A DNA stretch of 64,000 nucleotides from an uncultured delta proteobacterium (GTDB taxonomy: Bacteria; Desulfobacterota; Binatia; UBA9968), in NCBI GenBank assembly GCA_963816145.1, contig CAWFJP010000009.1, positions 64,001 to 128,000 of the forward strand, given 5' to 3'. This document shows positions 23,279 to 62,087 of this stretch, in pieces (position 1 is the first letter of the stretch; the number at the start of each line of letters is the position of its first letter). Position numbers and translations under genes: made by a program. The notes beneath the pieces were generated by a model, which made no database searches, was not told the origin of the DNA, and was given only the letters and a program-made list of their open reading frames with translations.

Positions 23279-24259
23279 ATGATGAGACGAATCGTCGCCG
23301 GCTGCTTACTAATGTTCGGTCTGCTCGCGGGACGTATCGACGCCCAGGAAAGGTTTCGCTTCCCCATCGGCGAGTCATCGAAGACCTTGAGCTATGGGCC
23401 ACTGTGGGTGGCGGCGAAGATGGGTTTCTTTGAGAAGGAGGGGTTAGAAGTTCCGATCGTTACCATGCGCGGTTCGCCCCTGACCATTCAAGCGCTGACG
23501 GCCGATTCCATTTACGTCGCCAGCGCCACCGTCGACACGCTCATCAACGCGTACGAGAGAGGCGCGGATATCACCATGATCGGCGGCTTGATCAATGGAC
23601 TTGGGTTGAGCATGATCGGCGCCAAGCAGTACAAGACCTACGGAGACCTGCGCGGCACGACTATCGGTTCCCAGACGCTAACCTCCGGCACCGGCTTCGC
23701 CCTGCGGCTGGTGATGAAAGTCCACGGCCTTGAATATCCGCGAGACTATAAGCTCCTGAACATCGGCAGCGCGCCGGATCGCTTTCGGGCGTTGGCTTCG
23801 GGGCAGATCTCATCCGCGCCCGTGGGTGTGCCACTCGACCTCGTCGCAAAGCAACAAGGTTTCAACATCATCGGCTATTTCGCCGACGATCAGCCCAATT
23901 TTCAGTTCAACGTCTATATCGTCAAGCGTTCTTGGGCGGAAAAAAACCGGACGTTGGTGGTGCGCTTCATGAAAGCGATGGTCGCGACGATGCGTTGGAT
24001 GGCTGACAACCGCGACGCGGCCTGTGCTTATCTGACCAAGGAGATGTCCATCGGCATGGACGATTGCCGCTATGCCTACGATTATAACTGGAAAAACCGT
24101 ATATGGGATCGCAATGCCGATCTCAACGTCGAAGGCGTGCGCACGATCATCAATTTAACCGCGGACCAAGGGGTCTTGAAAGAGCCTCTGCCCCAACCGT
24201 CGAAATACGTCGATCCCAGCTATCTCAAACAGGCCCTCGCGGAAGTGGGCAAGCCGTGA
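23279..24259 (+). CDS. ABC-type solute-binding protein, SsuA/THI5-like (tandem paralog of preceding gene)
   Basis: Shares RFPIG.SSKT.SYGPLW, GSQTLT.GTGFALRLV, HGLEYPRDY and WDRNA.LNV.GVRT with 22220-23239. Confidence 0.88.
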   Translation: MMRRIVAGCLLMFGLLAGRIDAQERFRFPIGESSKTLSYGPLWVAAKMGFFEKEGLEVPIVTMRGSPLTIQALTADSIYVASATVDTLINAYERGADITMIGGLINGLGLSMIGAKQYKTYGDLRGTTIGSQTLTSGTGFALRLVMKVHGLEYPRDYKLLNIGSAPDRFRALASGQISSAPVGVPLDLVAKQQGFNIIGYFADDQPNFQFNVYIVKRSWAEKNRTLVVRFMKAMVATMRWMADNRDAACAYLTKEMSIGMDDCRYAYDYNWKNRIWDRNADLNVEGVRTIINLTADQGVLKEPLPQPSKYVDPSYLKQALAEVGKP

Positions 24260-24308: not shown

Positions 24309-25310
24309 ATGGATAAGTCAATTCGCTTGGCTGCTTTGATTTCGTTATTGAGCGTGGCATCTCTGGCCGCTTCTGTCAGCGCCCAGGACAAGATTCGCAT
24401 GGGCTTGAGTTCGGTGAGCGGGTTACACACCGCTGTCTGGGTGGCTGAAACAAAAGGGCTCTTTCGTAAACACGGATTGGATGTCGAAGTGATCGTCACC
24501 GGCCAGGGCGGCACTGCGGGCATTAGCGCGCTAATTGCGAACGACGTGCAAATGGTGAACTCAGCCGGCGATGTCTTGGTCGCGGCTGCACTGCGCGGCG
24601 GCGATACCGTGATGGTCGCCGGTGTCGTCAACAAGGGGCTGCAGCGGTTGATCACCAAGCCCGACATAAAAACTCCCGCGGATCTAAAGGGCAAACGAGT
24701 CGGCGTCACCCGCATTGGCGCGGTGTCCCATTCCGTGTTGTTGATGATGCTGCAGCGCTGGAAGATGAGCGTCAACGACGTCCAGGTCATGCAGCTCGGC
24801 TCGTCGCCGAGCATGCTGGCGACCCTGGACAAGGGAGGCATCGAAGGAGCTGTGGTGACGATTCCTTCGATGTTCGTCGCCGAAGACCGCGGATATCGAG
24901 TGTTGCTCGATATGGCCGATACCGACATTTACTATTTGCATACGATGGTCGCGACAACGCGCCAATACATCAAAAATAATCGCGACAAGGTGCTGCGCTT
25001 TCTCAAGGGTTATGTCGAAGGAATTGCGTTTGTCAAACATAACAGGCAGGAAAGTGTGGACATCGTCAAGAAGAAGCTTCGCATCGGTCCCGAGCAGGAG
25101 AAGACTCTGGAACGCTCGATAGATTTATTAGTCGCGAAATACTACGAGTCGGTGCCCTATCCATCGTTGCGCGGCGTTGAAACGGTGCTCGGCTTCATCG
25201 AAAAGGACAATCCCAAGGCGAAGACCGCCGATCCGAAGTCGTTCGTCGACGACAGTTTGCTGCGCGAGATCGAGCAGAGCGGGTTTGTGAAGACGCTTTA
25301 TGCGAAATAG
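24309..25310 (+). CDS. ABC-type solute-binding protein, SsuA/THI5-like
   Basis: Signal peptide, GLFRKHGLDVE, DLKGKRVGVTRIG, REIEQSGFVKTLY. Confidence 0.88.
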   Translation: MDKSIRLAALISLLSVASLAASVSAQDKIRMGLSSVSGLHTAVWVAETKGLFRKHGLDVEVIVTGQGGTAGISALIANDVQMVNSAGDVLVAAALRGGDTVMVAGVVNKGLQRLITKPDIKTPADLKGKRVGVTRIGAVSHSVLLMMLQRWKMSVNDVQVMQLGSSPSMLATLDKGGIEGAVVTIPSMFVAEDRGYRVLLDMADTDIYYLHTMVATTRQYIKNNRDKVLRFLKGYVEGIAFVKHNRQESVDIVKKKLRIGPEQEKTLERSIDLLVAKYYESVPYPSLRGVETVLGFIEKDNPKAKTADPKSFVDDSLLREIEQSGFVKTLYAK

Positions 25311-47580: not shown

Positions 47581-47726
47581 GAAACCTCCTCGGCAAATCG
47601 CCGGTCACTGTAATGCGAACCGGTGACAGCGTCAACGATATTGTCGGTAATTTGCGAGAATGAATGATAGCGTCGGCTATCGCCATATTGAGGCGACCGG
47701 CTGGTCACCCCATCATTTGGCCGAAC

Positions 47727-48878
47727 TTACTTCCCCCACAACTCTTTGGTCGCCAGCCTGGCCCCTTCGGCCATGGCTTCGAATTTGGCCCAGCAGATTT
47801 GCGGGCTGCCGACTCGCGGGCCCAAGCCGCAGTCGGTGCCAGCCATGATGTTTTCTTTGCCGACGATCTTGGCGTAGCGGATCAATCGGTCGGCGATTGC
47901 CTGCGGATGTTCGACGATATCAGTGGCGTGGCCAACGACACCGGGGACCAGGACTTTGCCGGCAGGGAGTTTTACTTCCTCCCAGACGCGCCATTCGTGT
48001 TCGTGGCGCGGGTTAGCCGCTTCGATCGATATCGTGTTGGCGTTCACCTTCAGAATGATGTCGATGATGTCGCGCAGCGGGATGTCGTATTTGTGCGGGC
48101 CATGATAGCTGCCCCAGCAGGTGTGAAAGCGCACGCGGTCGGGAGGGACGTCACGCAAGCCGTGATTGAGCGCTTCGACGCGCAGTTCGGCATACTTGCG
48201 ATACTCCGGCACCGACATGTTGGACATGAACTGCCAGCCGTCCGGCAGATCCGGGTCGTCGATTTGCAGCAAGAAGCCGGCGCCGGCGATGGCTTTGTAT
48301 TCTTCGTGCATGGCATCGGCGATGGCAACCAGATAGGCCTCGTCGCTCGGGTAATAGTCGTTTTTCATCCAGTGCTCGATGGTCCCTGGAGCGACGGCGG
48401 GAAGAAACGCTTCTTCGTACTTCTGATCTTGCAGACCGGCCTTGAAGTCGGCAATCTCCGCGGTCAACGATGCATGGCCGACGTATTTCAACGGCGCGTT
48501 ACAAAATACCCGTTTGACGTTGTCGCCACGATGGGATGTGCGCGCGTTGAAGTAATCGCTGAACTCGGTCAAATCCCTGGCGAAGATCGTTGAGGTGTGG
48601 TCGCTGGCTTTAACTTCGCGCTCGATGAAGCCGCTCAACCGGTCGCGGGCGTAGCGTGAGAAGTTGGATTTGCCCTGTTCGCCGTCGTTGATGATGTCAA
48701 GGCCGCAGGCGATTTGTTTCTTAACGATATCGGCGACGGCGCCGGTGACGCGTCTGCTAAACGCCTGCTCGTCTACGGGAGTCCCAGCGGTGCGCGCATT
48801 GTGCAGTTCTTTTAAGTCGGCCGGCAGCGGCAGGGCGCCGGCGTGGGTAGTTAAAATTCTGTCGGTACTGTATATCAT
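47727..48878 (-). CDS. Cobalamin-independent methionine synthase II (single-barrel MetE-like) family protein
   Basis: ILTTHAGALP, DIINDGE, LQIDDP, Zn ligands HTCWG, IEAANPRH, TDCGLG. Confidence 0.88.
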   Translation of the reverse strand: MIYSTDRILTTHAGALPLPADLKELHNARTAGTPVDEQAFSRRVTGAVADIVKKQIACGLDIINDGEQGKSNFSRYARDRLSGFIEREVKASDHTSTIFARDLTEFSDYFNARTSHRGDNVKRVFCNAPLKYVGHASLTAEIADFKAGLQDQKYEEAFLPAVAPGTIEHWMKNDYYPSDEAYLVAIADAMHEEYKAIAGAGFLLQIDDPDLPDGWQFMSNMSVPEYRKYAELRVEALNHGLRDVPPDRVRFHTCWGSYHGPHKYDIPLRDIIDIILKVNANTISIEAANPRHEHEWRVWEEVKLPAGKVLVPGVVGHATDIVEHPQAIADRLIRYAKIVGKENIMAGTDCGLGPRVGSPQICWAKFEAMAEGARLATKELWGK

Positions 48879-49004: not shown

Positions 49005-49985
49005 TCATTTGAACGATTCCCCGGGCTTTTGCGCAAAGCTGAAATCGAACACCCGCTCCGGCGGTGGCGGTTGGGCGAGTTTCGTGCGCTGGGCGGCGGT
49101 GACGATCATTTCGCGCTGGAGTTTTTCATCGACGATGCCCGAGGTCGACAAGTAACCCACCGCAGCCTCGTAAACGCGCTCGGCATACTTGTCGCGGTCT
49201 TTACCCATATCGAGAAACGGTCCGCGAATGAACTCAATGCCATACTTTTTATCGTTGCGGAACAGTCGGAGTGCTTTCTGCGTGGCGCGGATGACCTTGG
49301 TCACCAGTTCCGGTTTCTCATTGATGACCGCTTTGGTGGTCGTAAGACCCCCCTGCACGGCGCGATAGACATCGGCGCCCGCGGCGATCTTGCGAAAACC
49401 CTCGTCGACGGCGATAAAATTCTGCGGAATTTGCAGCATGGTGGCTTCGATGGTGCCGGCTTTCAAAGCCACCCAGGTAATGTCGCTGGTGCCGAGGGGC
49501 AGCATCGTTACCTGATCTAGCGGGATTTTGTTGGCGATCAAAATCTGCCGGGCAATGATCTCGGTCAGCGATCCTGGCGCGGAAATGCCGATTTTTTTGC
49601 CGCGCAGCTGCGCCACGCCGGTAATGCTCGGCAGGGAGATCATATCAAAGGATGGCTTGTCGGAGAGCGCGAAGACGACCCGGACATCGGCGCCGTTTAC
49701 AGCGGCACTGATGGCGGTACCGGTGGCGGTGCCGAAGTCGACACCGCCGGCGAGCATTGCCTGAACCGTTTGGATCGCCTTCATGAAAATAAACTCCGGC
49801 TCGAGGCCTTCCTCGCGGAAGAAGCCGCGGTCGCGGGCAATGATAAACGGCATATCGAGAGTGCTACGCGACACGTAGGCGATGCGGAAGGTCGAGAGCT
49901 TGGCGGATCTCTCCGCCGACCATAGCGTTCCCGGACATATGATGAGTACAGCTACCAAAGCGGTCAGAATCCGTGATCGTTTCAT
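49005..49985 (-). CDS. ABC-type solute-binding protein, SsuA/THI5-like
   Basis: Signal peptide, ARDRGFFREEGL, QLRGKKIGIS, VFDFSF; GGAGG RBS before MKRS. Confidence 0.88.
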   Translation of the reverse strand: MKRSRILTALVAVLIICPGTLWSAERSAKLSTFRIAYVSRSTLDMPFIIARDRGFFREEGLEPEFIFMKAIQTVQAMLAGGVDFGTATGTAISAAVNGADVRVVFALSDKPSFDMISLPSITGVAQLRGKKIGISAPGSLTEIIARQILIANKIPLDQVTMLPLGTSDITWVALKAGTIEATMLQIPQNFIAVDEGFRKIAAGADVYRAVQGGLTTTKAVINEKPELVTKVIRATQKALRLFRNDKKYGIEFIRGPFLDMGKDRDKYAERVYEAAVGYLSTSGIVDEKLQREMIVTAAQRTKLAQPPPPERVFDFSFAQKPGESFK

Positions 49986-50053
49986 GGCTAACCCCTCCAT
50001 GGCTCAGCGAGGCTGGCGAACCTTTGCCTCCACACCCCGGACGCTAAACGATC

Positions 50054-50719
50054 TCAAGCATAGGTGTCGTATATCCCGTCGAACTTGTTGATCTTGAAGC
50101 GCACCATATTCTTCGCCGCGGCCCGAACCACTTCTTTGTCGCGATCGGTGATGGCGAACTTCGCCACGGTGTCGGCCGCCATGGCGGTGTGTTCCATATC
50201 GACTTTACCGTGAACCGTGAAGAATGTCCGCGCCCGAGCGTCGAGGCCATAGTGTTTCCCCAAGGCCTCATCGAATTCTTCGGAGTAGCGTTGCACCATG
50301 GTTTCATTGACCAGCGCGCCAACGCGGGTTTCTGCCGGCGCGCCGACGAGCATGCCGCGGACGATCGCTCCGGTATGGGCGACGCATTCAAAAATCATGA
50401 TGCCGTCGTCGAAGTCGGCGTCGGTGAGCCCCATGGCCAAACCGAAGCGTCGCATGAGACCGGGATGAGATTGCTCCTCGGTGAACAGCTCGATGAACTG
50501 CTCGTACATGGCCTGGTTGTTGGCGTTGCGGACCATCGAAAAGGCCAGTCCTTTGTTGATCACGTGGTTCGACAAGTAGTGCTGGACGGCAAAGCCTTGC
50601 AGCCGTTTCTTCGACAACTTGCCGGCGCGCAGCTCGGTGAAGAAGCGCGTGTTCATCAACTGATCCACGCCTGGGCGGATGATTTCCTTGAGAACCGATT
50701 CGACGAATGGGTTGGACAT
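50054..50719 (-). CDS. Heme-oxygenase-like (TenA/PqqC/CADD superfamily) iron-containing redox enzyme
   Basis: RFFTELRAGKL, EEQSH, VNE, FFTVHGKVDMEH (HxxxDxxH). Confidence 0.8.
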   Translation of the reverse strand: MSNPFVESVLKEIIRPGVDQLMNTRFFTELRAGKLSKKRLQGFAVQHYLSNHVINKGLAFSMVRNANNQAMYEQFIELFTEEQSHPGLMRRFGLAMGLTDADFDDGIMIFECVAHTGAIVRGMLVGAPAETRVGALVNETMVQRYSEEFDEALGKHYGLDARARTFFTVHGKVDMEHTAMAADTVAKFAITDRDKEVVRAAAKNMVRFKINKFDGIYDTYA

Positions 50720-50851
50720 AAGCGTTCCCCTCGTTAAATATTTTGTATGCAAACACTGGCAGAGGGAGGGATGAACTGTCAAGCCGGGCAGAATTGGTTT
50801 GACAGAGAACTGTGCGGCGACTAAACGTTAGAACGTTGTCTGGATGTGGAT

Positions 50852-51694
50852 ATGCCAATCGCAAAGTTGGCCGGCCTACAAATCTATTACGAAACGCAGG
50901 GTAGCGGCGAGCCCGTGCTGCTCGCGCCGGCGTCCTGGTGGCCGTCCGATACTTGGAACGTCGGTGTCGTGCCGTTTCTATCGAAGCGTTTCAAAACCAT
51001 CGTTTTTGACTGCCGCGGCACCGGTCGAAGCAGCCAGCCGAAGGACGGTTACACGGTGGCGCAGTTCGCGCAGGATTGCCTTGGCTTGTTAGCGCACCTC
51101 GGCATATCGCGTTGCCACGCCGTTGGCTTTGCGCTCGGTGGGCAGATGATGCAAGCCATGGCGATCGAGCGGCCCGATGTGGTTGCTACGCTGACCATCG
51201 CCGCATCGGGGGCAGGCACGAAGACGCTTGCAGGCGGGCAAAGAAGTTTGTCGCCGGACACGGAACGGGAAATTCGCGTGATCGGTTTCGAGCGCTACAT
51301 TCGCAACTATATCGAGAACGACACCATGGCATTCAATCCGCAATTCTACCGCGGGCACGGCGAGGTAGTGGCGGCGTTGGCGGATGCGGTGTGGTCGGGC
51401 CAGAGCACCGTGGAATTGTTTCGCCGCCATGAAGACGCGCGGCTTACTTGGGACACATTGGGAAAGGCGGTCGAAGTCAAAGTGCCGACGCTGATTCTAT
51501 GCGGTGCGGACGATGATGTGGCGCGCCGCGGCAGCACGCCGGTGGGCACGGCCAAGCGCCTCGCCGAACTGACAGCGGGCAGTGAATTGTTTCTAATTCC
51601 TAATACCAAGCATATGACGTTCTGGGAGGGCAGCGGTGGGCTGATTGCGTTGGAAGATTTCTTCTTGCGTCATCCGATTGGCACTCAGCGATAA
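50852..51694 (+). CDS. Alpha/beta-hydrolase-fold protein lacking nucleophile (GFALGG), paralog 1
   Basis: IYYETQGSGEPV, FDCRGTGRS, GFALGG, VPTLILCGADD, KHMTFW. Confidence 0.85.
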   Translation: MPIAKLAGLQIYYETQGSGEPVLLAPASWWPSDTWNVGVVPFLSKRFKTIVFDCRGTGRSSQPKDGYTVAQFAQDCLGLLAHLGISRCHAVGFALGGQMMQAMAIERPDVVATLTIAASGAGTKTLAGGQRSLSPDTEREIRVIGFERYIRNYIENDTMAFNPQFYRGHGEVVAALADAVWSGQSTVELFRRHEDARLTWDTLGKAVEVKVPTLILCGADDDVARRGSTPVGTAKRLAELTAGSELFLIPNTKHMTFWEGSGGLIALEDFFLRHPIGTQR

Positions 51695-51738
51695 CATTTC
51701 GTTTGAGATCGAAGTGGCTCTCGCGCTACAAACTAAGA

Positions 51739-51856
51739 AGGGCGACCGACCGGTCGCCCCTACGGCGGAATCGGATATTTAACCGCAGAGTACGCAAAGT
51801 ACGCAAAATAAATCCGACGATGAAATTCCGAGGTAGGGGCGTATGGCATACGCCCT
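51739..51856. repeat. Inverted pair of GTAG-type REP palindromes
   Basis: AGGGCGACCGACCGGTCGCCCCTAC (51739-51763) and GTAGGGGCGTATGGCATACGCCCT (51833-51856); third copy at 57123. Confidence 0.75.
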
Positions 51857-51947
51857 GGTGGGTGGAGCAGCGGTCCAGTGGCTTGATGATTCACGATGGC
51901 ACGACATGTTTAAAGTTTTGCGAAATGAACGACTGGTGAGGTGAACG

Positions 51948-52787
51948 ATGCCGAAGGCGGATTTAGGCGATGTGACGATTTACTACGAAAGCCAGGGTGC
52001 CGGTGACACGGTCCTGCTCTGCCCGCCGTCCTGGTGGCCTTGCGATACTTGGAATGTCGGTGTGGTGCCGTTTCTTGCCAAGAAGTTTCGCACGATCATT
52101 TTCGACTGCCGCGGCACCGGTAATTCCAGCAAGCCCGACCATGGCTACACCATCGAGCAGTTCGCCAAGGATTGCGCCGGCCTGTTGGAGTTTCTAAAAA
52201 TTTCGCGTTGCCACGCCGCTGGTTTCGCGCTTGGCGGTCAGATCGCCCAAGCTCTGGCGATTCAGCGCCCCGATCTGGTCGCGACCTTGACCATTGCCGC
52301 TGCCGGTGCGGGGGCGAAGGCGACCGACGGCGGGCCGCGGGTGGTGCGAAATACCGACGAAGAGGAGATTCGCGAGCATGGCTTCGAGAAGTTCATCCGC
52401 GGCCATATCGAGAACACCCATATGGCGTTCGACGACAAGTTCTTTGGGGCGCATCGGGACGTCGTCAAAGCCCTGTCCGATGCGTTGTGGAAACGGCAAA
52501 CCAGTCCGGAACAGCATCGCTATCATTTCGAGGCCCGGCGCACTTGGGATACTTTGGGCAACGCGCCCAAGGTGACGGTTCCGGCCTTGATCCTGTGCGG
52601 CGCCGGCGACGATGTGAACCGCGGCGGCAGTACGCCGGTGGGCACGGCGCGCAAGTTAGCCGAATTGGTTCCAGGTTGCGAGCTTGCATTGGTGCCCAAC
52701 GTCAAGCATATGACCTTTTGGGATGGCGATGGGGCGCTGCACGCGCTAGAAGAATTTTTGTTGCGCCATTCGATCGGTGGCATTTAG
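51948..52787 (+). CDS. Alpha/beta-hydrolase-fold protein lacking nucleophile (GFALGG), paralog 2
   Basis: PPSWWP, FDCRGTG, GFALGG, LCGAGDD, KHMTFW. Confidence 0.85.
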   Translation: MPKADLGDVTIYYESQGAGDTVLLCPPSWWPCDTWNVGVVPFLAKKFRTIIFDCRGTGNSSKPDHGYTIEQFAKDCAGLLEFLKISRCHAAGFALGGQIAQALAIQRPDLVATLTIAAAGAGAKATDGGPRVVRNTDEEEIREHGFEKFIRGHIENTHMAFDDKFFGAHRDVVKALSDALWKRQTSPEQHRYHFEARRTWDTLGNAPKVTVPALILCGAGDDVNRGGSTPVGTARKLAELVPGCELALVPNVKHMTFWDGDGALHALEEFLLRHSIGGI

Positions 52788-52850
52788 TTCCGGAAACCGT
52801 TGAACCTTGAAACCTTGAACTTTGAACCAGCGCGATTCAGGAGATTCAAA

Positions 52851-53901
52851 ATGAAGCAGACTCCAGATTATTGGGAACGGTTGTTTTGCTATTGCGGTGA
52901 TCTTGTTGTTGACCAGCGCTGCCGGAGCTCAGCAGGACAAAGCCGCAATCGATAAGCTATACAATGCGGCGAAGAAAGAAGGCAGGGTGGTGATCTGGGG
53001 ACCCACCGACGGGATTGTTTATGAGAAGATGCAGGAATTGCTCGACAAACAGTATCCGGGTATCAAGATCGAGTCCTTTGAGAGCATTCCCGAACCGCTG
53101 GTGCAGCGCATCATCGCCGAGAACCAGGCGGGCAAGCCGGCGGCGGTCGATATTATCCAGTCCGGCTCGCTGCGCGCGCTGCGGCCGTTGATCGATCGCG
53201 ACCTGTTGGCGTCCTATCCAGGGTGGGAAAAAGAATTTGGTTTAGACGCTGTGTACGCCAACCACCGATTCGTCGGCGCCTATAATCTAGCTCTACCGAT
53301 CGCTTACAACTCAAAAGCAGTCAGCGCCAAGGACGCGCCGAAAAGCTGGGAAGATCTCGCCGAGGCGAAGTGGAAGGGCAAGAAAATAATTATCGAGGCC
53401 CGGTTGGTGCCGTTCGCCATGCTCGGCACGGAGTGGGGTAAGGAAAAGGCGATGGATTTGGTCAAAAGAATTCTTGCCCAGCAGCCGCTCATCGTGCAAG
53501 GCGGCACGACCGTCGCCAATGCGCTCGCCGGCGGTCAAGTGTCGATCGCCGTCGGCACCTATGCTTTTACGATCGAGGGCCTGAAAAAGCGCGGCGCATC
53601 GGTGGACTGGATCGGACCTTCGCCGCTACCCGTGCTGACCTCGGCAGAGGGCGTTCTCAAGACCGCGCCCCATCCTAACGCAGGGCGTTTCTTTGCCGGT
53701 TGGATGGGCACCGCCGAGGCGCAGAAGATTCGCTACTCGATTCGAGGACAATCCATGGAGGTCGGGAAAAACGCCATCGGCAACGTGGCCGATCGGATCA
53801 GGAGCGAGAAACCGGCGGTCATCTTGGAAACCGAAAAGACTTTTGCCGGTATTTTGGAGATTCAACGAGAAATGGGCAAGTTGCTCGGCGCGCTCAGGTG
53901 A
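52851..53901 (+). CDS. ABC solute-binding protein, Fe3+/thiamine/AfuA-like (probable +1 frameshift near 52857)
   Basis: AAKKEGRVVIW, IAYNS, PKSWEDL, APHPNAG. The AGGAG RBS and ATG 52851 join the ORF if one base is removed (MKRLQIIG...). Confidence 0.82.
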
Positions 53902-54079
53902 AAACGGCGTGATGCTAACCCGAGGATATTACTCGTCGCTAGCGGGTTCTTCGTGGACCTAAACCGTGGCGCGGGATCTTGCATGGGGCCGAGATTCTTT
54001 GCCGGCGGCTCAGACTGATACAAGAACGAGGAAGCCCGCCGCGACCGAGCCCGGCGACCATTAATCAATCGTATCGTCA

Positions 54080-55858
54080 ATGAATTTTACGCCCACCACG
54101 ATCGCCGAGAGCGTGAAGCTGAGACCTTGGTCTTCGGTTGGGAAATTATCGTTTCGCGCCCTCACCCTCGGCTTGACGATCGGTGTCGTTTCTTATCTCG
54201 TTCTTGTGCCGCTGTTCATGTTGCTCTACGCCAGCGTCAAGAGCACCGAAGACAAGCTGCCTTTCGAGTCGACGGTCATCACGCTATCCAATTACGCCGC
54301 CGTGCTAACCAGCCCGGCGACGCTGCCGATTTTTCTCAACACGATGCTATTCACCGTGGGCTCTTTGGCGGTGGGCCTGCCGCTGGCGATCTTATTGGCT
54401 TGGTTATGCGAACGCACGGCGATTCCTGGGCGCAGCTGGATTGCCGCATTGATACTGGTGCCGATGACGATCCCTTCGTTGCTTTCGGCGATCGCCTGGA
54501 TCCAGCTGCTCGATCCACGCAATGGGCTTATCAACGTTGTGCTCCGCGGTGTGTTCGGCGTGGCGTCGGACATCGGCCCTTTCGATATCTATACGATTTA
54601 CGGTATGTGTTTTGTGCAGGGGCTGCGGCTGGTGCCGTCGGCCTATCTGATGATCGCGGCGTCGTTTCGCGCCATGGACCCGTCCTTGGAAGAGCAGAGC
54701 GCCATGGCCGGACGCGGAGTCGCCCAGACCACCATGCGCGTGACCTTGCCGATCATGCGGCCGGCGCTGCTCGCCGCGCTGATTTATTTCATTATCGTTG
54801 TCATCGAATCCTTCGATATTCCCGGCCTGCTCGGTTTTACCGCGCGCATTCGCGTGCTCAGCACGGCAATTTATTGGGCGACCCATTCCGAAGTCGGGCT
54901 TCCCGATTACGGGTTGGCGTCGGCGCTCGGAACGATTATTCTTTTTGCGGCGCTGCTGCTCATGTGGGGCTATCAGCGCTTGACCGCGCATCAGGAGCGC
55001 TTCGCCACGATCACCGGCAAGGGCTATCGACCGCGTCAAGTCGCTCTCGGTATCTGGTCGGCGCCGGCCGCTGGCTTCTGCACAGTCTATGTCTTGATCG
55101 CGGTGTTATTGCCGTTTCTCATGTTGCTGTGGACCAGCGTGCAGCCGTTTTATTCCACCCCATCGGTGGATTCGCTGGCGCGAGTGAGCTTTGAAGGCTA
55201 CGCCAATATCTGGAATGACGGCAGTGTCGTGCGCGCCATCTGGAATACCGCGCAGCTTGCGGTGATTACTTCGGTAGCGACTATCGTGCTCGCTTTGCTG
55301 GTCAGTTGGTTCGTGGTGCGGCGCCGGCGCGGCGACAACGGCGTGGCCAATTATTTAGCGACGGTATCGTTTTTGCCGCAGTGCGTGCCGAGCATCGTCA
55401 TCGGCTTGGCGTTTATCTTCGTCTATGTGCGGTTCCCGATCCCAATCTACGGCACGCTGTGGATCATTGCTTTGGCGATGACCACGCGCTATCTCGCTTA
55501 CAGTTCGCGGGCGACCACTTCGGCGCTCATGCAGGTTCACGGCGAGCTCGAAGAGGCGTCGCAAATGGCCGGCGCGCCGTGGACGCGCACCATCCGGCGG
55601 ATCACCGTGCCGCTTTTGGCTCCGGCATTGATCAATGTGTTTTTCTGGGTCGCGGTGCACGCGATGCAGGAGCTGTCGATGGCCTTGATGCTTTACAATC
55701 CGGACACGGTGGTGGTGTCGACGATGATCTGGAGCATGTGGCAGAACGGCCGAACCGCCGACGCGGCGGTGCTCGGGGTCCTGCTCACCCTGCTATCCGC
55801 GGTGTTGCTGCTTGGCGGCTACCTGGTTTCGCGCTTGCGGCGGCAAGCGGATACCTGA
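54080..55858 (+). CDS. ABC transporter permease, two fused TM domains (FbpB/ThiP-like)
   Basis: Two EAA loops: MDPSLEEQSAMAG and HGELEEASQMAGA; TITGKGYRP linker. Confidence 0.92.
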   Translation: MNFTPTTIAESVKLRPWSSVGKLSFRALTLGLTIGVVSYLVLVPLFMLLYASVKSTEDKLPFESTVITLSNYAAVLTSPATLPIFLNTMLFTVGSLAVGLPLAILLAWLCERTAIPGRSWIAALILVPMTIPSLLSAIAWIQLLDPRNGLINVVLRGVFGVASDIGPFDIYTIYGMCFVQGLRLVPSAYLMIAASFRAMDPSLEEQSAMAGRGVAQTTMRVTLPIMRPALLAALIYFIIVVIESFDIPGLLGFTARIRVLSTAIYWATHSEVGLPDYGLASALGTIILFAALLLMWGYQRLTAHQERFATITGKGYRPRQVALGIWSAPAAGFCTVYVLIAVLLPFLMLLWTSVQPFYSTPSVDSLARVSFEGYANIWNDGSVVRAIWNTAQLAVITSVATIVLALLVSWFVVRRRRGDNGVANYLATVSFLPQCVPSIVIGLAFIFVYVRFPIPIYGTLWIIALAMTTRYLAYSSRATTSALMQVHGELEEASQMAGAPWTRTIRRITVPLLAPALINVFFWVAVHAMQELSMALMLYNPDTVVVSTMIWSMWQNGRTADAAVLGVLLTLLSAVLLLGGYLVSRLRRQADT

Positions 55859-55970
55859 CGTGATTCGATCGAGTGGGACTGGGGAAATCGCGTTCGTAAT
55901 CGTGGACGTGTTGGCGTTGAACATGCTCATGTGACAGGAACTTGATTCCCAACTGAAGCTAGGATCGATT

Positions 55971-57065
55971 GTGATAATCGTTAAAGACTTGGTCAAATCC
56001 TTCCCCGGCGCGAAGGGTGAGGTGCGCGCCCTCAACGGCGTCTCTTTCGCAGTTGGCAAGGGCGAATTGTTTACGCTCCTCGGACCAAGCGGCTGCGGTA
56101 AAACGACGACGCTACGCTGCATCGCCGGGCTCGAACAACCGGTAGCCGGCGAGATCGTAATCAACGACCGCGCCGTGTATCGCGCCGCTGACGGCACCTT
56201 TGTGCCGCCGGAGCGACGCGAGATCGGCATGGTGTTCCAATCCTATGCGATCTGGCCGCATATGACCGTGTTTAAAAACGTCGCTTATCCGCTGGCGGGC
56301 GGCAACGGCCGCGATGACGTCAACCAGCGCGTCGGCGCTGTACTCGAACGGCTGAGCCTGGGAAGTTTAGCCGACCGGCTGGCGCCCAATCTGAGCGGCG
56401 GCCAACAACAGCGCGTCGCCCTGGCGCGGGCGCTCGTGGCGCAGCCCCAGGTGCTGCTGCTCGACGAACCGCTTAGCAACCTCGACGCCAAATTGCGCGA
56501 GCAGATGCGCTTCGAATTGAAGTCGTTGCAAGAGTCCTTCGGCATTACCACGGTGTACGTAACCCACGATCAGGAAGAAGCGCTGGCATTGTCCGATCGC
56601 ATCGGGCTGATGCATGAGGGCGCGCTCTTGGAAGTCGGCAGCCCGAGCGACCTCTATATCCGTCCGGCACACCGGATCACCGCCGACTTTCTTGGCACGG
56701 CGAATTTTATCGCCGCTCAGGTCGAAAAGCCGGGAAGCGAGGCTTGGGATGAAATGTTGATTGCGACGCCGATGGGCAAATTCGCCGCGCGGCGCAGTGT
56801 CGAATGGCAGCCAGGCATGGCGGCGGAGCTGTTTTTTCGACCGGAGAGCATCGAGCTGTTGGATGGCAATAGGTCCGGCGGGGAGGCGAATTGCGGTTTA
56901 GCCCAGGTTGAGCGCGTGACTTTTCTCGGCAACTCGGCGGATGTGATATTGCGCAGCGGCGAAGTGCGCATTCGCTTGCGCGCCCATCCGGCGCGGATTC
57001 CCAGCGTCGGTACGAAGGTGAGCTTTTCAGTTCCGGCGGAGTCGTGCATCGTGTTTCCGGCGTGA
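55971..57065 (+). CDS. ABC transporter ATP-binding protein (FbpC/PotA-like)
   Basis: GPSGCGKT, VFQSYAIWPHM, LSGGQQQ, LLLDEPLSNLD, VTHDQEEA, TOBE-like C-terminus. Confidence 0.95.
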   Translation: MIIVKDLVKSFPGAKGEVRALNGVSFAVGKGELFTLLGPSGCGKTTTLRCIAGLEQPVAGEIVINDRAVYRAADGTFVPPERREIGMVFQSYAIWPHMTVFKNVAYPLAGGNGRDDVNQRVGAVLERLSLGSLADRLAPNLSGGQQQRVALARALVAQPQVLLLDEPLSNLDAKLREQMRFELKSLQESFGITTVYVTHDQEEALALSDRIGLMHEGALLEVGSPSDLYIRPAHRITADFLGTANFIAAQVEKPGSEAWDEMLIATPMGKFAARRSVEWQPGMAAELFFRPESIELLDGNRSGGEANCGLAQVERVTFLGNSADVILRSGEVRIRLRAHPARIPSVGTKVSFSVPAESCIVFPA

Positions 57066-57122
57066 GATGTAAATCTTTTTCCTCGCCCAGTCCGATGGAA
57101 TCGGGAAGCGCGAGTGATCATA

Positions 57123-57145
57123 TAGGGGCGACCGGCGGTCGCCCT
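57123..57145. repeat. GTAG-type REP palindrome
   Basis: TAGGGGCGACCGGCGGTCGCCCT. Confidence 0.7.
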
Positions 57146-57189
57146 CTTTGGGCTTGTTTGGACTAGGAGATCTTGATGAGGAATGGATC

Positions 57190-58137
57190 ATGAACAATGC
57201 AGCTGTTTCAATAAACAACCATCAGGCCAATCGAATCGAATGGCAGCTTTACACAAAGATGTTGACCACCCGCGTTTTCGAAGAAGCGCTGGTGCGTTGG
57301 GAACATGAGGGGAAACACTCGGCGCAGACCTTTCCGAGCAAGGGACAAGAAGCGATCGCCATCGGCACTTGCCTGGCCTTGGAAAGAGGCGACGACGTGC
57401 TGCCATCGTTTCGCACCCGCGGCGCGATGATCGCCATGGGAATCAGTCTCGATGAGCAGCTCCGCGAGTTTCTACACACGCCGCTAGCTGCCGGCGATTC
57501 GCGCGACGCGCCGCATCATGCGTCATGGCCGGAACGCGGCGTGCTGCCCGGTTCGACCATGATCGGCGGCCATCTGGCGATGGCCGCGGGTGTCGCGCTG
57601 GCCAATCAATGCGATCGCGCCAATAACGTCAGCGTGGCCTTCTTCGGTGATGGCACTTTGGGTTCCGGCGACCTGCATGAGACCATGCATATCGCCGGCG
57701 CCTGGAATCTGCCATTGATCCTGGTCTGCGAGAACAACGGTTGGGAGATGGCGACGCCCTGGCCCAAGGTGCGCAAGCAGCGTTCGTTAATCCCCTATGC
57801 CGCGCCTTTCGGCCTCGCGACCCGTCAGGTCGACGGCAACGATGCTTTGGACGTCTATCACGCGGCGCGCTGGGCGCGTTCGACGGCATTGAAGGGCCAG
57901 CCGGCGTTTCTCGATTGTCTGACTTTTCGCGTCGGCTTGTATAGCTCGCATTTCGGCGAAGTTCGGACCGGCATCGAGAACGATTTAGCCGACGCGGCCA
58001 AACGCGACCCGTTGAAGCGCTTAGGCGATTGGCTGATCGACAACGGGCTGGCGACGGCAGGTGCACTCGAGCAGTTGCAGCACGATGAAGAGCAGCTGGT
58101 TGAAGCGGCATTCAATATCGTTAGGGGTGAAGGGTAA
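57190..58137 (+). CDS. TPP-dependent dehydrogenase E1 alpha-like subunit (divergent)
   Basis: GQEA, TPP motif FFGDG...CENNGW, VDGND, RDPL. Confidence 0.88.
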   Translation: MNNAAVSINNHQANRIEWQLYTKMLTTRVFEEALVRWEHEGKHSAQTFPSKGQEAIAIGTCLALERGDDVLPSFRTRGAMIAMGISLDEQLREFLHTPLAAGDSRDAPHHASWPERGVLPGSTMIGGHLAMAAGVALANQCDRANNVSVAFFGDGTLGSGDLHETMHIAGAWNLPLILVCENNGWEMATPWPKVRKQRSLIPYAAPFGLATRQVDGNDALDVYHAARWARSTALKGQPAFLDCLTFRVGLYSSHFGEVRTGIENDLADAAKRDPLKRLGDWLIDNGLATAGALEQLQHDEEQLVEAAFNIVRGEG

Positions 58138-58193
58138 AGGGTCAGGCGTCCTGAATCCGGAATCGCCTAACCCCCTGACACCTTACCCCTTAC
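58120..58193. repeat. Inverted heptamer-type repeat overlapping the E1 alpha stop
   Basis: TTAGGGG TGAAGGG TAAAGGG TCAGGCG ... GCCTAACCCCCTGACACCTTACCCCTTAC. Confidence 0.7.
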
Positions 58194-58213
58194 GGGTTCA
58201 TGGAGCGATGAAG

Positions 58214-59167
58214 ATGTCCACAATGAATTACCGCGATGCGGTCGGCAAAGCACTACAAGATTCGATGCGCGAAGATAGCCGGCTGATCGTCATCGGCCAG
58301 AATCTCGCGGCTCATGCTCTGAAGCCGCTGGCTGAGACATATGGATTGGATCGGGTGCGCGATTCGGCGATAAGCGAGAGCGCTATGGTCGGCATGGCGG
58401 TGGGCGCGGCGATGAAGGGAATGAAGGCGGTGGTGATGATCGCCTACGCCGACATCGCCTCGGTTTGCCATATGGCGATCGTCCAGAGCGCGGCGAAGCT
58501 GCACTATTTAACCAATGGCCGCTTGCGCTGTCCGATCATTATTCGTTTGCCGATCGCGCGCTTTCGCGGTCATGGCCCGGAGGGCAACGAGGTCGGCGCG
58601 TCGTGGTTCTATAACGTGCCAGATTTGAATATCGCCATGCCCGGTTCGGCAAGTGAAGCGTACTGGAGCTTTCGCGACGCTCTGACCCGGCCGACGCCGA
58701 CGTTGTTTTTCGAGGATCGCTCGATCCATTTGCGCAGCGGCGCGGTGGCGGAAACCAACCCTGGCGGCAAAGCGCAAATCACCCGCACTGGCGACAAGTT
58801 GACGATCGTCGCCGCCGGCCGCACCGCGGCGCTGGCCGAAGACGCCGCCGACGAATTGGCGAAACAAGGCGAGCGTGACGCGGTCGAGGTGGTCAGCTTG
58901 GGATTTATCAAGCCGTTGGATAGCGACACGGTGCTCAAGGCCGCGAGCAAGACCGGTCGCGTCTTGATCATCCAGGACGAACCCGAATGGGCCGGCTATG
59001 CGCCCTATGTGCGTTTCGTGCTCGACCGCTTGCCGGCGGGTAAACTCGCGCTCGCGCCCCGTTTGTTGGTCGGCGTCGATCAGTATTTGCCCTATTGGGA
59101 TGAGCGGCCGTTCGTGCCGTCGCTGGATAGCGTCGTCGCTGCGGCGAAGGATTTACTAAAACAATAA
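58214..59167 (+). CDS. TPP-dependent dehydrogenase E1 beta-like subunit (divergent)
   Basis: YRDAV, RVRDSAISESAMVGMAVGAA, TLFFED, KPLD...SKTGRVLII. Confidence 0.88.
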   Translation: MSTMNYRDAVGKALQDSMREDSRLIVIGQNLAAHALKPLAETYGLDRVRDSAISESAMVGMAVGAAMKGMKAVVMIAYADIASVCHMAIVQSAAKLHYLTNGRLRCPIIIRLPIARFRGHGPEGNEVGASWFYNVPDLNIAMPGSASEAYWSFRDALTRPTPTLFFEDRSIHLRSGAVAETNPGGKAQITRTGDKLTIVAAGRTAALAEDAADELAKQGERDAVEVVSLGFIKPLDSDTVLKAASKTGRVLIIQDEPEWAGYAPYVRFVLDRLPAGKLALAPRLLVGVDQYLPYWDERPFVPSLDSVVAAAKDLLKQ

Positions 59168-59187
59168 CGACGACTGCGGGTGCAAAG

Positions 59188-60207
59188 ATGTCGATGAAAA
59201 TTCAATCCCTCGCACTGGTCTTTCTTTTGACAAAGGTATCTCTGGCGTTGGGTCAGGTTGCCAATCCGGATCTCCTCGCCCAAGCCAAAAAGGAAGGGCG
59301 CGTCACCTGGTACACGACCGTGTCGATCCCGGAGAGCAAGCTATTTATCGACATGTTCGAGAGGCAATATCCGTTCATCAAGGTCGATTTGTTGCGGTCA
59401 GGGGCGGGGGCGTTGATCAATCGCGTCACCAGCGAATACGCGGCACGGAATTATTCCGCCGATGTGCTGCAAGGATTGTCGAGCCGCGGCGGGCTCAGCT
59501 TACTCAAAAAAAGAGAAATCCTTGGCCGCTATGTATCACCGGAGTTCAAAAATTTTCCTGCCGAGTTTAGCGACAAAGCGGGCTATTGGGGGTCAACCTT
59601 TCAAAACACCTTCGTGCTTGCCTACAACAAGCGCAACGTCAAACCGGACGACGTGCCGAAAATCTACGAAGATCTGTTGAAACCGATATGGAAAGGCCGG
59701 CAAATCATCAACGACACGGATAATTTTGAATGGTTCGACGGCTTGTTGCGTTTCTGGGGAAAGGACAAAGGGCTCGCCTACTTCCGCCGCCTGGCGGCGC
59801 AGGATCAGATATTTCAGCGCGGCGCGCGCGGGCGCATCCAACTGGTCGCAGCAGGCGAAGCGCCTTTGGCGATCGGCTACGGACCTCACGCCCAAAGCTT
59901 CGTCAACCAAGGCGCGCCCATCGAGTGGGTTGCGCTTGAACCGGTGGTTGTGATCATCAGCACGACCAGCATCGCGGCGCGCGCTCCCCATCCGGCCGCC
60001 GCGCGGCTGTTCTACGATTTTCTGTTTTCAAGAAGCGCGCAACTGAAACTGCGGGAACTCAGCCGAATTCCGACGCGCAGCGATGTCGACGCCGATCCGC
60101 CACGTCTTAACAAAGGCTTCAAGAAGGTCGTGCAGGATTTGGAGAATGAAAATATGGCCGAGTCGATCAAATTGTTTCAGCAGGTATTCGGTTTGGCGCC
60201 GGGCTGA
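59188..60207 (+). CDS. ABC solute-binding protein, Fe3+/thiamine/AfuA-like
   Basis: Signal peptide, AKKEGRVTWYT, LAYN, YEDLLKPIWKG, APHPAAARLFYDF. Confidence 0.88.
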   Translation: MSMKIQSLALVFLLTKVSLALGQVANPDLLAQAKKEGRVTWYTTVSIPESKLFIDMFERQYPFIKVDLLRSGAGALINRVTSEYAARNYSADVLQGLSSRGGLSLLKKREILGRYVSPEFKNFPAEFSDKAGYWGSTFQNTFVLAYNKRNVKPDDVPKIYEDLLKPIWKGRQIINDTDNFEWFDGLLRFWGKDKGLAYFRRLAAQDQIFQRGARGRIQLVAAGEAPLAIGYGPHAQSFVNQGAPIEWVALEPVVVIISTTSIAARAPHPAAARLFYDFLFSRSAQLKLRELSRIPTRSDVDADPPRLNKGFKKVVQDLENENMAESIKLFQQVFGLAPG

Positions 60208-60292
60208 TTCCCAATGGGTTCCAACCGTTCCAATCGTTCCAGAGGTTCCAATCGTCGAGTTCCCGGGCTACCAGAGGTTTGAGAGTCGATTC

Positions 60293-61132
60293 ATGCCAAC
60301 TGTCAAGCTGAACGGTGTCGAGATTTACTATGAAACTCAGGGGCGCGGCGAACCGGTTCTTCTGGTGCCGCCCAATTGGTGGCCTTGCGCGACTTGGAAG
60401 GTTACCGTGGTGCCGGTGTTGTCCAAGCGATTTCGCACGATCATTTACGACGGCCGCGGTACCGGCCGGAGCGCGCAGCCAAAGGATGGCTACAATGTCC
60501 GGCAGTTCGCGTTGGACGGCATCGAGTTGTTGCAGCAGTTGGGCGTTAGTCGTTGTCACCTCGTTGGATTTGCCATCGGCGGCCAGATCGTTCAGGCGAT
60601 GGCGATCGAGCGGCCGGAGTTGGTCGCGAGTCTGACGATTTCCACCACCGGACCGGGAGTGCGCCGGCTCGATGGCACGCTGCGCGAAGTGGGACCGGAA
60701 GCGCTGCATGAGATCAACAAGATCGGCTTCGAGAAATACATCCTCGAGCATATCGATAACGATCATATGGCCTACAACCCCGAGTTTTATACCAGCCATC
60801 GTCGACAGGCCGCAGAGTTGGCGCGGGCGCTTTGGTCGGGGCAAAGCACGGTGGAGCAGTATCGCATTCACGAACTGGCGCGGCTGACTTGGGACACGTT
60901 GGCGGAAGCGCCGAAGGTAAACGTGCCGACCTTGGTTCTTTGCGGCGCAGATGACGGCGTCGAGCGGCGCGGCAGCACCCCGGAGGCGACGGCGCGGCGA
61001 CTGGCGCCGTTGATTCCCGGCGCTGAATTGGCTTTGATCCCCGGCGTCAGGCATATGACGTTTTGGGATGGCGATGGAGCGTTGAAAGCGTTGCAGGAGT
61101 TCTTAGAGCGTCATGCGATTGGCGCTAAATAG
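60293..61132 (+). CDS. Alpha/beta-hydrolase-fold protein lacking nucleophile (GFAIGG), paralog 3
   Basis: MPTVKLNGVEIYYE, PPNWWP, YDGRGTGRS, GFAIGG, LCGADD, RHMTFW. Confidence 0.85.
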   Translation: MPTVKLNGVEIYYETQGRGEPVLLVPPNWWPCATWKVTVVPVLSKRFRTIIYDGRGTGRSAQPKDGYNVRQFALDGIELLQQLGVSRCHLVGFAIGGQIVQAMAIERPELVASLTISTTGPGVRRLDGTLREVGPEALHEINKIGFEKYILEHIDNDHMAYNPEFYTSHRRQAAELARALWSGQSTVEQYRIHELARLTWDTLAEAPKVNVPTLVLCGADDGVERRGSTPEATARRLAPLIPGAELALIPGVRHMTFWDGDGALKALQEFLERHAIGAK

Positions 61133-61235: not shown

Positions 61236-62087
61236 CTAAGCGAATTTCGCGGTTACCACCATTGCCAGATTGCCTTTCCCATCCACCGCCCAGAGAGTGG
61301 CGTCCCGGCCGTCGGCGCTTGGATTGCCATACAGAGTGAACTTGCCGTCGCTGTCATAGACCGAGCGCAGGTTTTGAAAGTCGAAGTTGGTCATGCGCTT
61401 GGCCGGCAATTCTCTGCGGCACATTTCCATTAACAGCTGGGAGATCAGCGAGCTCTGCACCACCAAGCCCGGCAGCTTTTCCACCTTGGTCACGTAATCG
61501 CGGTCGTAGTGAATGCGGTGGCTATTGAAGCGGATCGCCGAGAAGCGGAACAGCAGCGGCGGATTGGGCTCGACGGTCTGGTTCCATTTAGCCGCGCTAG
61601 GAATGGCGGGTGAAGTTTTGGGCGCTGCGTCGGCTCTGGCTTCGCTCAACATGACCGTGTCGCGTTCTTCGACGACGCATAGGCCGCGCGCGGTGGACAT
61701 GCTGTTGCGCTCGACGATGGTCACTTGTTCGCCGCCGTCGTCGATGCGCAGATCGGCGATCTCGGTCTTGCGCGTGACGTCATCACCAATTCGTAAGGGT
61801 TCATGAAACGACACGCGCGTGCCGCCTATTCTTCGTCGCGGTAGCGGGATCGCCGGCATGAAGCCGCCGCCCGCTGCTTGTCCGTCGGTGCGCATTTTGT
61901 CCGGCCGGTGCGAGGCCGGAAACAGTCCGCCGTACCAGCCGGGCGGGATCGCCGCGCCTTTTTCCAGCGGCGGATTCTCCAGACCCAACGTCGCGGCGAA
62001 CTTTACCATTGTCGATGCGGTCACGACATCCGTCGCGCTCTCGCTCTTGCCAATATAGCTTTTGAAGCTCTCAAGCGATTCAGCCAT
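61236..62087 (-). CDS. Double hot-dog (R)-specific enoyl-CoA hydratase, mesaconyl-C4/itaconyl-CoA hydratase (HTD2)-like
   Basis: PPGWY, PLPRRRIGG, LFRFSAIRFNSHRIHYDRDY, PGLVV. Confidence 0.82.
   Translation of the reverse strand: MAESLESFKSYIGKSESATDVVTASTMVKFAATLGLENPPLEKGAAIPPGWYGGLFPASHRPDKMRTDGQAAGGGFMPAIPLPRRRIGGTRVSFHEPLRIGDDVTRKTEIADLRIDDGGEQVTIVERNSMSTARGLCVVEERDTVMLSEARADAAPKTSPAIPSAAKWNQTVEPNPPLLFRFSAIRFNSHRIHYDRDYVTKVEKLPGLVVQSSLISQLLMEMCRRELPAKRMTNFDFQNLRSVYDSDGKFTLYGNPSADGRDATLWAVDGKGNLAMVVTAKFA

Follow-up and report, generated by a model that had tools for sequence, protein, structure and literature searches.

Three alpha/beta-hydrolase-fold paralogs with alanine in place of the nucleophilic serine in a Binatia gene cluster, and the conserved clade to which they belong

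What does an alpha/beta-hydrolase (ABH) fold do once its nucleophile is gone while its acid and its base are kept? This question is raised by three paralogous genes, here called A1, A2 and A3, on a stretch of 64,000 nucleotides (the window) from an uncultured delta proteobacterium placed in class Binatia (assembly GCA_963816145.1, contig CAWFJP010000009.1, positions 64,001 to 128,000 of the forward strand). All coordinates below are those of the window unless a locus is named. A first-pass annotation, made from the sequence letters, had claimed that all three proteins lacked the nucleophile and retained Asp and His, and that the usual HG oxyanion loop was replaced by P-(A/P)-(S/N)-WWP. Both claims were borne out, the former by the motifs and by HMMER alignments to solved structures, the latter by the loops PASWWP, PPSWWP and PPNWWP. 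The answer favored here, with a probability of roughly 40 %, is that these proteins would act on an imported anionic metabolite through a non-covalent His-Asp general base, most likely as decarboxylases or tautomerases.

50852..51694, plus strand: ABH paralog A1, 280 amino acids (aa); elbow GFALGG, Ala94 codon at 51131-51133; loop PASWWP; Asp221, Arg225 and His254
51948..52787, plus strand: ABH paralog A2, 279 aa; elbow GFALGG, Ala94 codon at 52227-52229; loop PPSWWP at 52023-52040; codons of Asp221 at 52608-52610, Arg225 at 52620-52622 and His254 at 52707-52709
60293..61132, plus strand: ABH paralog A3, 279 aa; elbow GFAIGG, Ala94 codon at 60572-60574; loop PPNWWP; Asp221, Arg225 and His254

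All three reading frames were intact. The open reading frame (ORF) of A1 extends over 50846..51694 with an ATG at 50852, the Met at which its orthologs begin; that of A3 (60083..61132) is open upstream to 60083, and ortholog starts matched the internal Met at 60293. The paralogs displayed 58-64 % pairwise identity and shared the P-(A/P)-(S/N)-W-W-P loop (residues 26-31), a CGA-x-D motif containing Asp221 and a (K/R)HMTFW motif containing His254. Each matched PF00561 (Abhydrolase_1) with 59-71 bits (cut-off 25.8). When aligned by HMMER to proteins of solved structure, Ala94 fell on the nucleophilic Ser of Est1 (6eb3/8v16, GVSMGG; E-value 1.8e-30), and likewise on that of Est816 (5egn, GNSIGG) and of a 3-oxoadipate enol-lactonase (2xua, GLSMGG), while Asp221 and His254 matched the acid and the base of Est1. 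Thus the acid after beta7 and the His after beta8 were present in A1, A2 and A3, and a G-x-Nu-x-G elbow with Ser, Cys or Asp was found in none of the three, Ala being encountered instead.

The AlphaFold2 model of A2 displayed the full ABH fold, with a mean predicted local distance difference test score (pLDDT) of 95.9 and a predicted template modeling (TM) score (pTM) of 0.94. It superimposed on esterase 8v16 with a VIA Z of 34.5 (root-mean-square deviation 2.2, 260 aligned residues) and on 2xua with a Z of 32.1; Foldseek TM values were 0.85-0.90 to Est1 and 0.77-0.82 to PcaD. The ESM Atlas returned only Binatota-centred ABH clusters of the own family. No fused or longer forms were found at E-values of 1e-20 or below in a search for longer proteins, which is weak evidence. 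By kinship, A1, A2 and A3 are intact alpha/beta-fold proteins of the PcaD/Est1 type.

The alanine was not a peculiarity of this genome. Among the 120 closest database homologs (82-94 % identity, mostly labeled as metagenome-assembled genomes of Deltaproteobacteria or Binatia), all 120 displayed G-F-A-(L/V)-G-G, that is, Ala and not Ser; the WWP loop was found in 116, CGAxD in 119 and KHMTFW in 119. The same 7.8-Mb genome carried only three copies of the subfamily, and its more distant ABH paralogs (25-33 % identity) retained G-H-S-M-G in ten out of ten cases. When 1.84 billion cluster representatives were searched exhaustively with HMMER, 46 proteins reached E-values of 1e-30 or below. The best 150 representatives of 50 % clusters included 17 of at least 50 % identity that covered the elbow; 16 displayed G-F-A-x-G and the remaining one, fragment P0124, was garbled at this point. 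W-W-P was also encountered in seven representatives at 31-38 % identity (Ala in six, Thr in one), and other full-length relatives (~30 % identity) carried Ser. A sister clade at about 35-43 % identity was likewise Ser-less: a metagenome scan seeded with the distant 'WWPL' group, in which loci were selected by the WWP peptide and not by the elbow, gave 18 loci, with Ala in all 17 that covered the elbow.

Both phylogenetic reconstructions grouped these proteins together. In a FastTree phylogeny of 169 rows, the Ser-less WWP rows (65 with Ala, two with Thr and one with a gap) formed one clade with a support of 99, and the rest of the larger group enclosing it has Ser. A quick IQ-TREE run (LG+C20) considered 82 rows, the representatives being hand-picked out of the 169, and was made after removal of the columns that carry the trait (loop 27-32, elbow 93-95, insert 222-230 and residue 255). 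The 31 Ser-less WWP rows again formed a single clade (Shimodaira-Hasegawa-like approximate likelihood ratio test 98.8) nested in Ser-bearing rows. Three elbow changes were needed on this tree: a basal Ser-to-Ala, one Ala-to-Thr and an independent one in P0227. As judged from these trees, the replacement of Ser by Ala in the clade appears to have happened once, at its base. Protein P0227, which lacks the WWP loop, belongs to an unrelated ABH branch and acquired Ala in place of Ser on its own (GFALGG); its nearest neighbors all have Ser.

The replacement was accompanied by further residues specific to the clade, identified by comparing 49 rows of Binatia type with 17 of the sister clade and 100 that bear Ser. 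Asp221 was found in 100 % and 94 %, and His254 in 100 % and 100 %, of the two Ser-less subclades (66 rows). Clade-specific invariant residues were A94, three positions of the oxyanion loop (W29, W30 and P31), three on lid helices (I150, A179 and W181), R225 and M255; position 28 varied (S, N, T, D). R225 lies within a five-residue insert after the catalytic Asp that is absent from Est1. H193 and R197 were invariant in the Ser-less clade and present in only 36 % of Ser-bearing rows. Ser was kept in 100 out of 100 rows of the Ser group. Of all Ser, Cys and Asp positions, just S60, D75 and D221 were conserved throughout the Ser-less clade. Since S60 and D75 were equally conserved in Ser-bearing relatives, the sequences offer no substitute nucleophile.

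Loss of the nucleophile is the classic sign of a dead hydrolase, and the three genes could accordingly be viewed as inactive relics, pseudo-enzymes heading for loss. The ratios of non-synonymous to synonymous substitution rates (dN/dS, Nei-Gojobori) contradicted this: they ranged from 0.050 to 0.124 over 34 ortholog pairs between window genes and related loci, namely 0.058-0.097 for A1 (nine pairs), 0.050-0.108 for A2 (21 pairs) and 0.087-0.124 for A3 (four pairs); the eight pairs with dS below 1 gave 0.066-0.102, dS being saturated in many of the others. Frames were intact, and Ala was kept across a deep clade of single origin. Soil metatranscriptome contigs, short and of low depth, matched A1 (51168-51748) and A2 (52236-52386) with 0-1 mismatch. 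They are a weak hint of A1 and A2 expression, as DNA carry-over is possible; the figures of RNA libraries X15 and X16 were the same, and both may stem from a single data set. As exact matches over both genes the contigs add weak evidence against the relic reading. The high RNA depth at 56065-56886 reflects a conserved ATPase motif from other organisms, and uncovered stretches carry no meaning. Since the data on selection and on the clade already contradict it, the relic reading is very improbable. Judged by substitution patterns, the loss of Ser is not decay, all three paralog lineages being under strong purifying selection. The argument of the first-pass annotation that a change shared by three copies speaks against decay is strengthened by this constraint, by the ancestral Ser-to-Ala replacement and by the clade-specific residues.

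The three genes belong to a cluster which, on the plus strand, runs A1, A2, a first solute-binding protein (SBP1), a fused permease, an ATP-binding cassette (ABC) ATPase, E1 alpha, E1 beta, a second solute-binding protein (SBP2) and A3, with intergenic gaps of 20-253 bp. Its other members and direct neighbors were as follows (ThDP, thiamine diphosphate).

50054..50719, minus strand: heme-oxygenase-like protein (CADD/TenA/PqqC-type), divergent; Haem_oxygenas_2 1.2e-14; TIGR04305 1.5e-16, below cut-off
52897..53901, plus strand: SBP1, FbpA/PhnS2-like, cluster D; Pfam SBP_bac_1/8/6; weak phnS2 match
54080..55858, plus strand: fused two-domain ABC permease, PhnU2-like; BPD_transp_1 twice; TIGR03262 6.5e-57, below cut-off
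55971..57065, plus strand: ABC ATPase with TOBE_2, PhnT2/PotA-like; TIGR03265 (PhnT2) 7.4e-95, below cut-off
57190..58137, plus strand: divergent ThDP E1 alpha-like protein; E1_dh 1.5e-51; start chosen by orthologs
58214..59167, plus strand: divergent E1 beta-like protein; ThDP-activating Glu (E59-beta position) kept; Asn125 within GPEGNEV
59188..60207, plus strand: SBP2, PhnS2/FbpA-like; SBP_bac_6 3e-17; phnS2 7.7e-22, below cut-off; PDB 7f6s 1.6e-20
61236..62087, minus strand: MaoC-like double hot-dog protein, convergent and syntenic; FAS1_DH_region 1.7e-07

The best curated matches of the transporter were PhnS2, PhnU2 and PhnT2 (of 'putative 2-aminoethylphosphonate' type), all under their cut-offs; the TIGR03262 (PhnU2) match of the permease spans positions 9-531 of 546. 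PDB relatives of the solute-binding proteins were Fe3+-type binding proteins, the sugar-phosphate binder 4r72 and a pyridoxal phosphate (PLP) binder, those of SBP1 being of the Fe3+ type and the PLP-binding protein. An ABM-family gene lies convergent beside the MaoC-like gene, on the far side of the cluster. No pca genes (pcaC and others) were found among the 12 cluster proteins scanned.

The E1 pair was itself unusual. Like the E1 of heterotetrameric 2-oxo-acid dehydrogenases, it displayed E1_dh, Transket_pyr and Transketolase_C domains, a GDG...NN ThDP motif and the Glu at the E59-beta position, but it lacked the catalytic residues His128-beta and His271-alpha, which serve acylation of lipoyl-E2. 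Asn125 of E1 beta was aligned by HMMER to His128-beta of Geobacillus stearothermophilus (1w85_B), and the His271-alpha position was occupied by Tyr according to HMMER and by Leu according to MAFFT. Both replacements were common to all of the 9 and 11 aligned Binatia orthologs. According to Pei et al. (2008, PMC2663715), His128-beta is conserved in all known E1s, the H128N variant is nearly inactive, and H128-beta together with H271-alpha serves the reductive acetylation of lipoate. No E2 or E3 genes were found among the scanned proteins of the cluster. Because the operon offers no E2 or E3 and both acylation histidines are replaced, the E1 alpha/beta pair is probably a lipoyl-independent ThDP enzyme.

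An AcoC-type E2 partner (NF011457) was also considered for the ABH proteins and dropped: they gave 40-44 bits against a cut-off of 307, on the ABH part of the model only. No AcoC-type protein was found above cut-off in this genome or in 14 control genomes, and A1-A3 carried no lipoyl or extra domain.

Gene context was compared in 25 related genome loci, of which 24 gave rows (all except L024). The order ABH-ABH-SBP-permease-ATPase-E1alpha-E1beta-SBP-ABH recurred in Binatia loci. A2 was the core copy, present in nearly all of them. At least one transporter gene stood beside an ABH gene in 15 of the 24, and E1 alpha and E1 beta were located downstream in 12. Three long loci (L002, L011 and L014) had neither transporter nor E1 genes next to A2, and the others were too short to tell. 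The CADD-like gene was found upstream in 12 of the 24, including loci without transporter and E1.

In an even sample of the class, the ABH family was detected in 16 out of 201 genomes, all within one order: six of 13 genomes of the window's family and nine of 11 genomes of a second family, with a single copy each in the latter. In a phylum-wide sample, one genome out of 201, the window's own, carried the family, which shows only its rarity outside its order. The divergent E1 beta was present in five of the 201 class genomes; all five were ABH-positive and are kin, not independent cases. The ABH genes of three genomes of the second family that were looked at are located as follows.

L050:9837-10664: second-family ABH gene
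L051:9512-10342: second-family ABH gene
L052:9843-10673: second-family ABH gene

In L050 and L051, two of the three, the ABH gene was directly followed by a PotA/PhnT2-type TOBE ATPase gene; in L052 no adjacent ATPase met the coverage filter. The same adjacency was encountered in metagenome locus L042. Solute-binding protein and permease genes lay 4-8 kb from the ABH gene in the second family, and in L051, the only one annotated, M24/creatinase-like, luciferase-like and OCD-like genes lay in between. The E1 pair therefore represents an addition within a single family, and the importer link is more general.

Contexts in the sister clade were of other kinds. In L026 the surroundings consisted of a cluster for Rieske, ferredoxin, SDR, flavin adenine dinucleotide (FAD)-monooxygenase and FAA-hydrolase proteins; MFS, NMT1 and UbiD neighbors were found in L031 and L032, and DLH, cupin and CoA-transferase neighbors in L035. 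In L026 (10001-10813), and also in L027, the Ser-less ABH gene occupies the place where a serine meta-cleavage-product hydrolase is normally expected. Loci L036, L037 and L039 displayed an Amidohydro_2-ABH operon convergent with an E1 alpha/beta pair. This linkage was considered as support for a coupling of ABH and E1 and was rejected: these E1 genes are canonical (E1_dh ~1e-75, HHSQS and RGH retained), stand convergent and represent about two related lineages.

Beyond the cluster, the window contained 13 genes for NMT1/THI5-like solute-binding proteins between 10867 and 50000 (e.g. 22220-23239, 23279-24259, 24309-25310 and 49005-50000), a large expansion of orphan binding proteins. With these, three Amidohydro_2 genes and two family-III CoA-transferase genes were found in the 64 kb. 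Four ORFs of 305-627 aa had no Pfam family at E-values of 1e-5 or below (8618-10501, 12341-13258, 21137-22198 and 47664-48593); the last accompanies the cluster in many related loci, where its counterparts are 55-71 % identical.

The proposal of a His-Asp general base builds on what was observed, namely the fold, a lost Ser alongside kept Asp and His, residues specific to the clade, purifying selection and synteny; from these we infer catalysis, reaction type and the nature of the substrate. Because the nucleophilic Ser is replaced by Ala, no acyl-enzyme can form. Instead, His254-Asp221 would provide the general base and acid for a substrate that is small, anionic and enolisable. A lid rich in Trp (Trp29, Trp30, Trp181 and Met255) would cover this substrate, and the cationic Arg225 of the five-residue insert, Arg197 and His193 would bind it; this pocket geometry was derived from topology only. 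Backbone NH groups in the elbow and in the S/N28-W29 loop may stabilize the enolate or oxyanion. A decarboxylation or a keto-enol or double-bond isomerisation following the logic of MKS1 would result, and not ester hydrolysis. The substrate or its precursor would probably be imported by the adjacent PhnS2/T2/U2-like ABC importer and, in the window's Binatia family, probably be processed further by the lipoyl-independent ThDP E1-like enzyme.

Several observations weigh against this proposal. The restriction of conserved Ser, Cys and Asp residues to S60, D75 and D221 argues against a substitute nucleophile without proving its absence, and the conserved pocket residues would suit a ligand-binding protein equally well. 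The link to E1 is not essential to ABH function, because the divergent E1 was found in only five of the 16 ABH-positive genomes. Finally, the varied surroundings of the sister-clade genes do not point to one common pathway.

Ligand binding is in fact the starting point of one alternative, in which the proteins would be non-catalytic and would serve the importer as cytoplasmic receptor, chaperone or partner of the TOBE-ATPase. The adjacency of ABH and PotA/PhnT2-type ATPase genes in two of three second-family genomes and in metagenome loci L041 and L042 is consistent with it, as is the presence of D14, KAI2 and GID1, which are ABH-fold receptors, among the structural matches. ABH receptors that gave up catalysis tend, however, to lose members of the triad, while Asp221 and His254 are invariant over a clade of about 35-43 % identity; three paralogs per operon also suit a set of related reactions better than one regulator. 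This role is unlikely on balance. Similarly improbable is a serine-independent hydrolase, e.g. a lactonase, whose His-Asp pair would activate water directly without a covalent intermediate. The sequences would be compatible with such a mechanism, which leaves the label 'non-hydrolytic' of the first-pass annotation tentative. Among solved and curated proteins the clade is closest to an enol-lactonase and to esterases, and it retains the oxyanion-hole backbone along with Asp and His; but its Ser-bearing relatives have held on to Ser without exception (100 of 100 rows of the Ser group, and ten of ten paralogs in the same genome), so this branch normally requires the nucleophile, and the coincidence of Ser loss with the WWP loop and the new Arg and Met looks like a changed reaction rather than a changed rate.

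An equally doubtful alternative is a cofactor-independent oxygenase, whose His-Asp pair would deprotonate an enolisable or hydroxylated (hetero)aromatic compound while O2 is accommodated at the oxyanion hole beside the Ala elbow. PMC10548524 describes a natural Ala at the elbow of AqdC dioxygenase, stabilization of O2 at the oxyanion hole by the S101A change in HOD and formation of this hole by Trp W36, and the Ser-less clade displays an invariant Trp-Trp at the same loop. Heme-oxygenase-like and ABM-family genes lie nearby, and a sister-clade member is found in the Rieske/FAD-monooxygenase cluster. The His-Asp pair is nevertheless built differently, the Asp standing 127 residues past the elbow and that of HOD, in the same source, 25; and the conserved Arg residues suggest that the substrate is anionic rather than neutral and of quinolone type. 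A more far-reaching reading, of similarly low probability, would join the Ser-less ABH proteins and the E1 pair into a new lipoyl-independent ThDP pathway for an imported compound, possibly a phosphonate or an amine-type zwitterion, with an ABH reaction new to the fold. His-Asp and Arg225 alone might then drive, for instance, a decarboxylase step or the lysis of a C-C or C-P bond, and the three paralogs might take successive or alternative intermediates.

As a scaffold whose chemistry can change, the alpha/beta-hydrolase fold serves as a standard model, and to our knowledge few natural lineages have dropped the nucleophile and yet stayed catalytic (the HOD/AqdC oxygenases and MKS1). If the general-base proposal is true, the clade would be a further independent and deeply conserved case, and its canonical Asp/His geometry, rebuilt oxyanion loop and gained Arg would make it a clean system for a His-Asp pair acting alone. 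Automatic public annotation labels these proteins '3-oxoadipate enol-lactonase' or 'pimeloyl-ACP methyl ester carboxylesterase', neither of which is possible by the usual mechanism. The E1 pair without its histidines further suggests that, in these uncultured Binatia of soil and wetland, the chemistry of the entire operon is an unfamiliar one.

Among known systems, Ser-less enzymes of the alpha/beta fold have already been described (AqdC and MKS1), while no description of the present clade was found in the literature covered, which excluded subscription journals. The view of the first-pass annotation that the subfamily is uncharacterised fits the lack of any curated family claiming A1-A3: the best NCBIfam match was TIGR02427 (PcaD), with 88.9, 105.7 and 99.5 bits against a cut-off of 255.85. 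Est1 (6eb3, 8v16) and PcaD (2xua) share fold and lid architecture with the clade, at ~30 % and 22-24 % identity respectively, and display Asp after beta7 and His after beta8 at matching positions. They differ in the elbow, where Ser is replaced by Ala in the clade, in the oxyanion loop, where M/H-G-x is replaced by P-x-(S/N)-W-W-P, and in the five-residue insert with its invariant Arg after Asp and the Met after His, which are features of the clade.

With HOD, QDO and AqdC the clade shares the use of the ABH fold without a nucleophile, the elbow Ala (AqdC) and a Trp at the oxyanion hole, as these enzymes are described in PMC10548524. The His-Asp precedent invoked by the first-pass annotation is real and, given the natural Ala of AqdC, stronger than had been stated; the His-Asp pair of HOD and AqdC serves as general base, and a list of Ala-bearing dioxygenases is provided in Fig. 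S2 of that paper (PMC10548524, as above). HOD differs in having its Asp at a non-canonical position (S101/D126/H251 in its numbering), whereas D221 of the clade is canonical and A2 contains no acidic residue at 115-125. Because the Asp is at the canonical position, the Ser-less clade would not belong to the HOD/QDO family, as far as can be judged from alignment, and HOD, QDO and AqdC were encountered neither among the 60 listed of 117 PDB sequence matches nor among the 50 listed structural matches. In these listings, no kinship with them was visible that would be closer than that with generic ABH enzymes.

MKS1 showed no sequence relation to the clade in any search and was not among the matches listed. 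In tomato MKS1 the elbow carries Ala and the acid residue is also changed. It is a plant protein of MES/HNL type, whereas Asp221 is invariant in the Ser-less clade. In PMC10548524, MKS1 is presented as a His-based beta-keto-acid decarboxylase without canonical triad. The likeness lies in an elbow without nucleophile and a retained catalytic His, to which Ala94 and His254 correspond in the clade.

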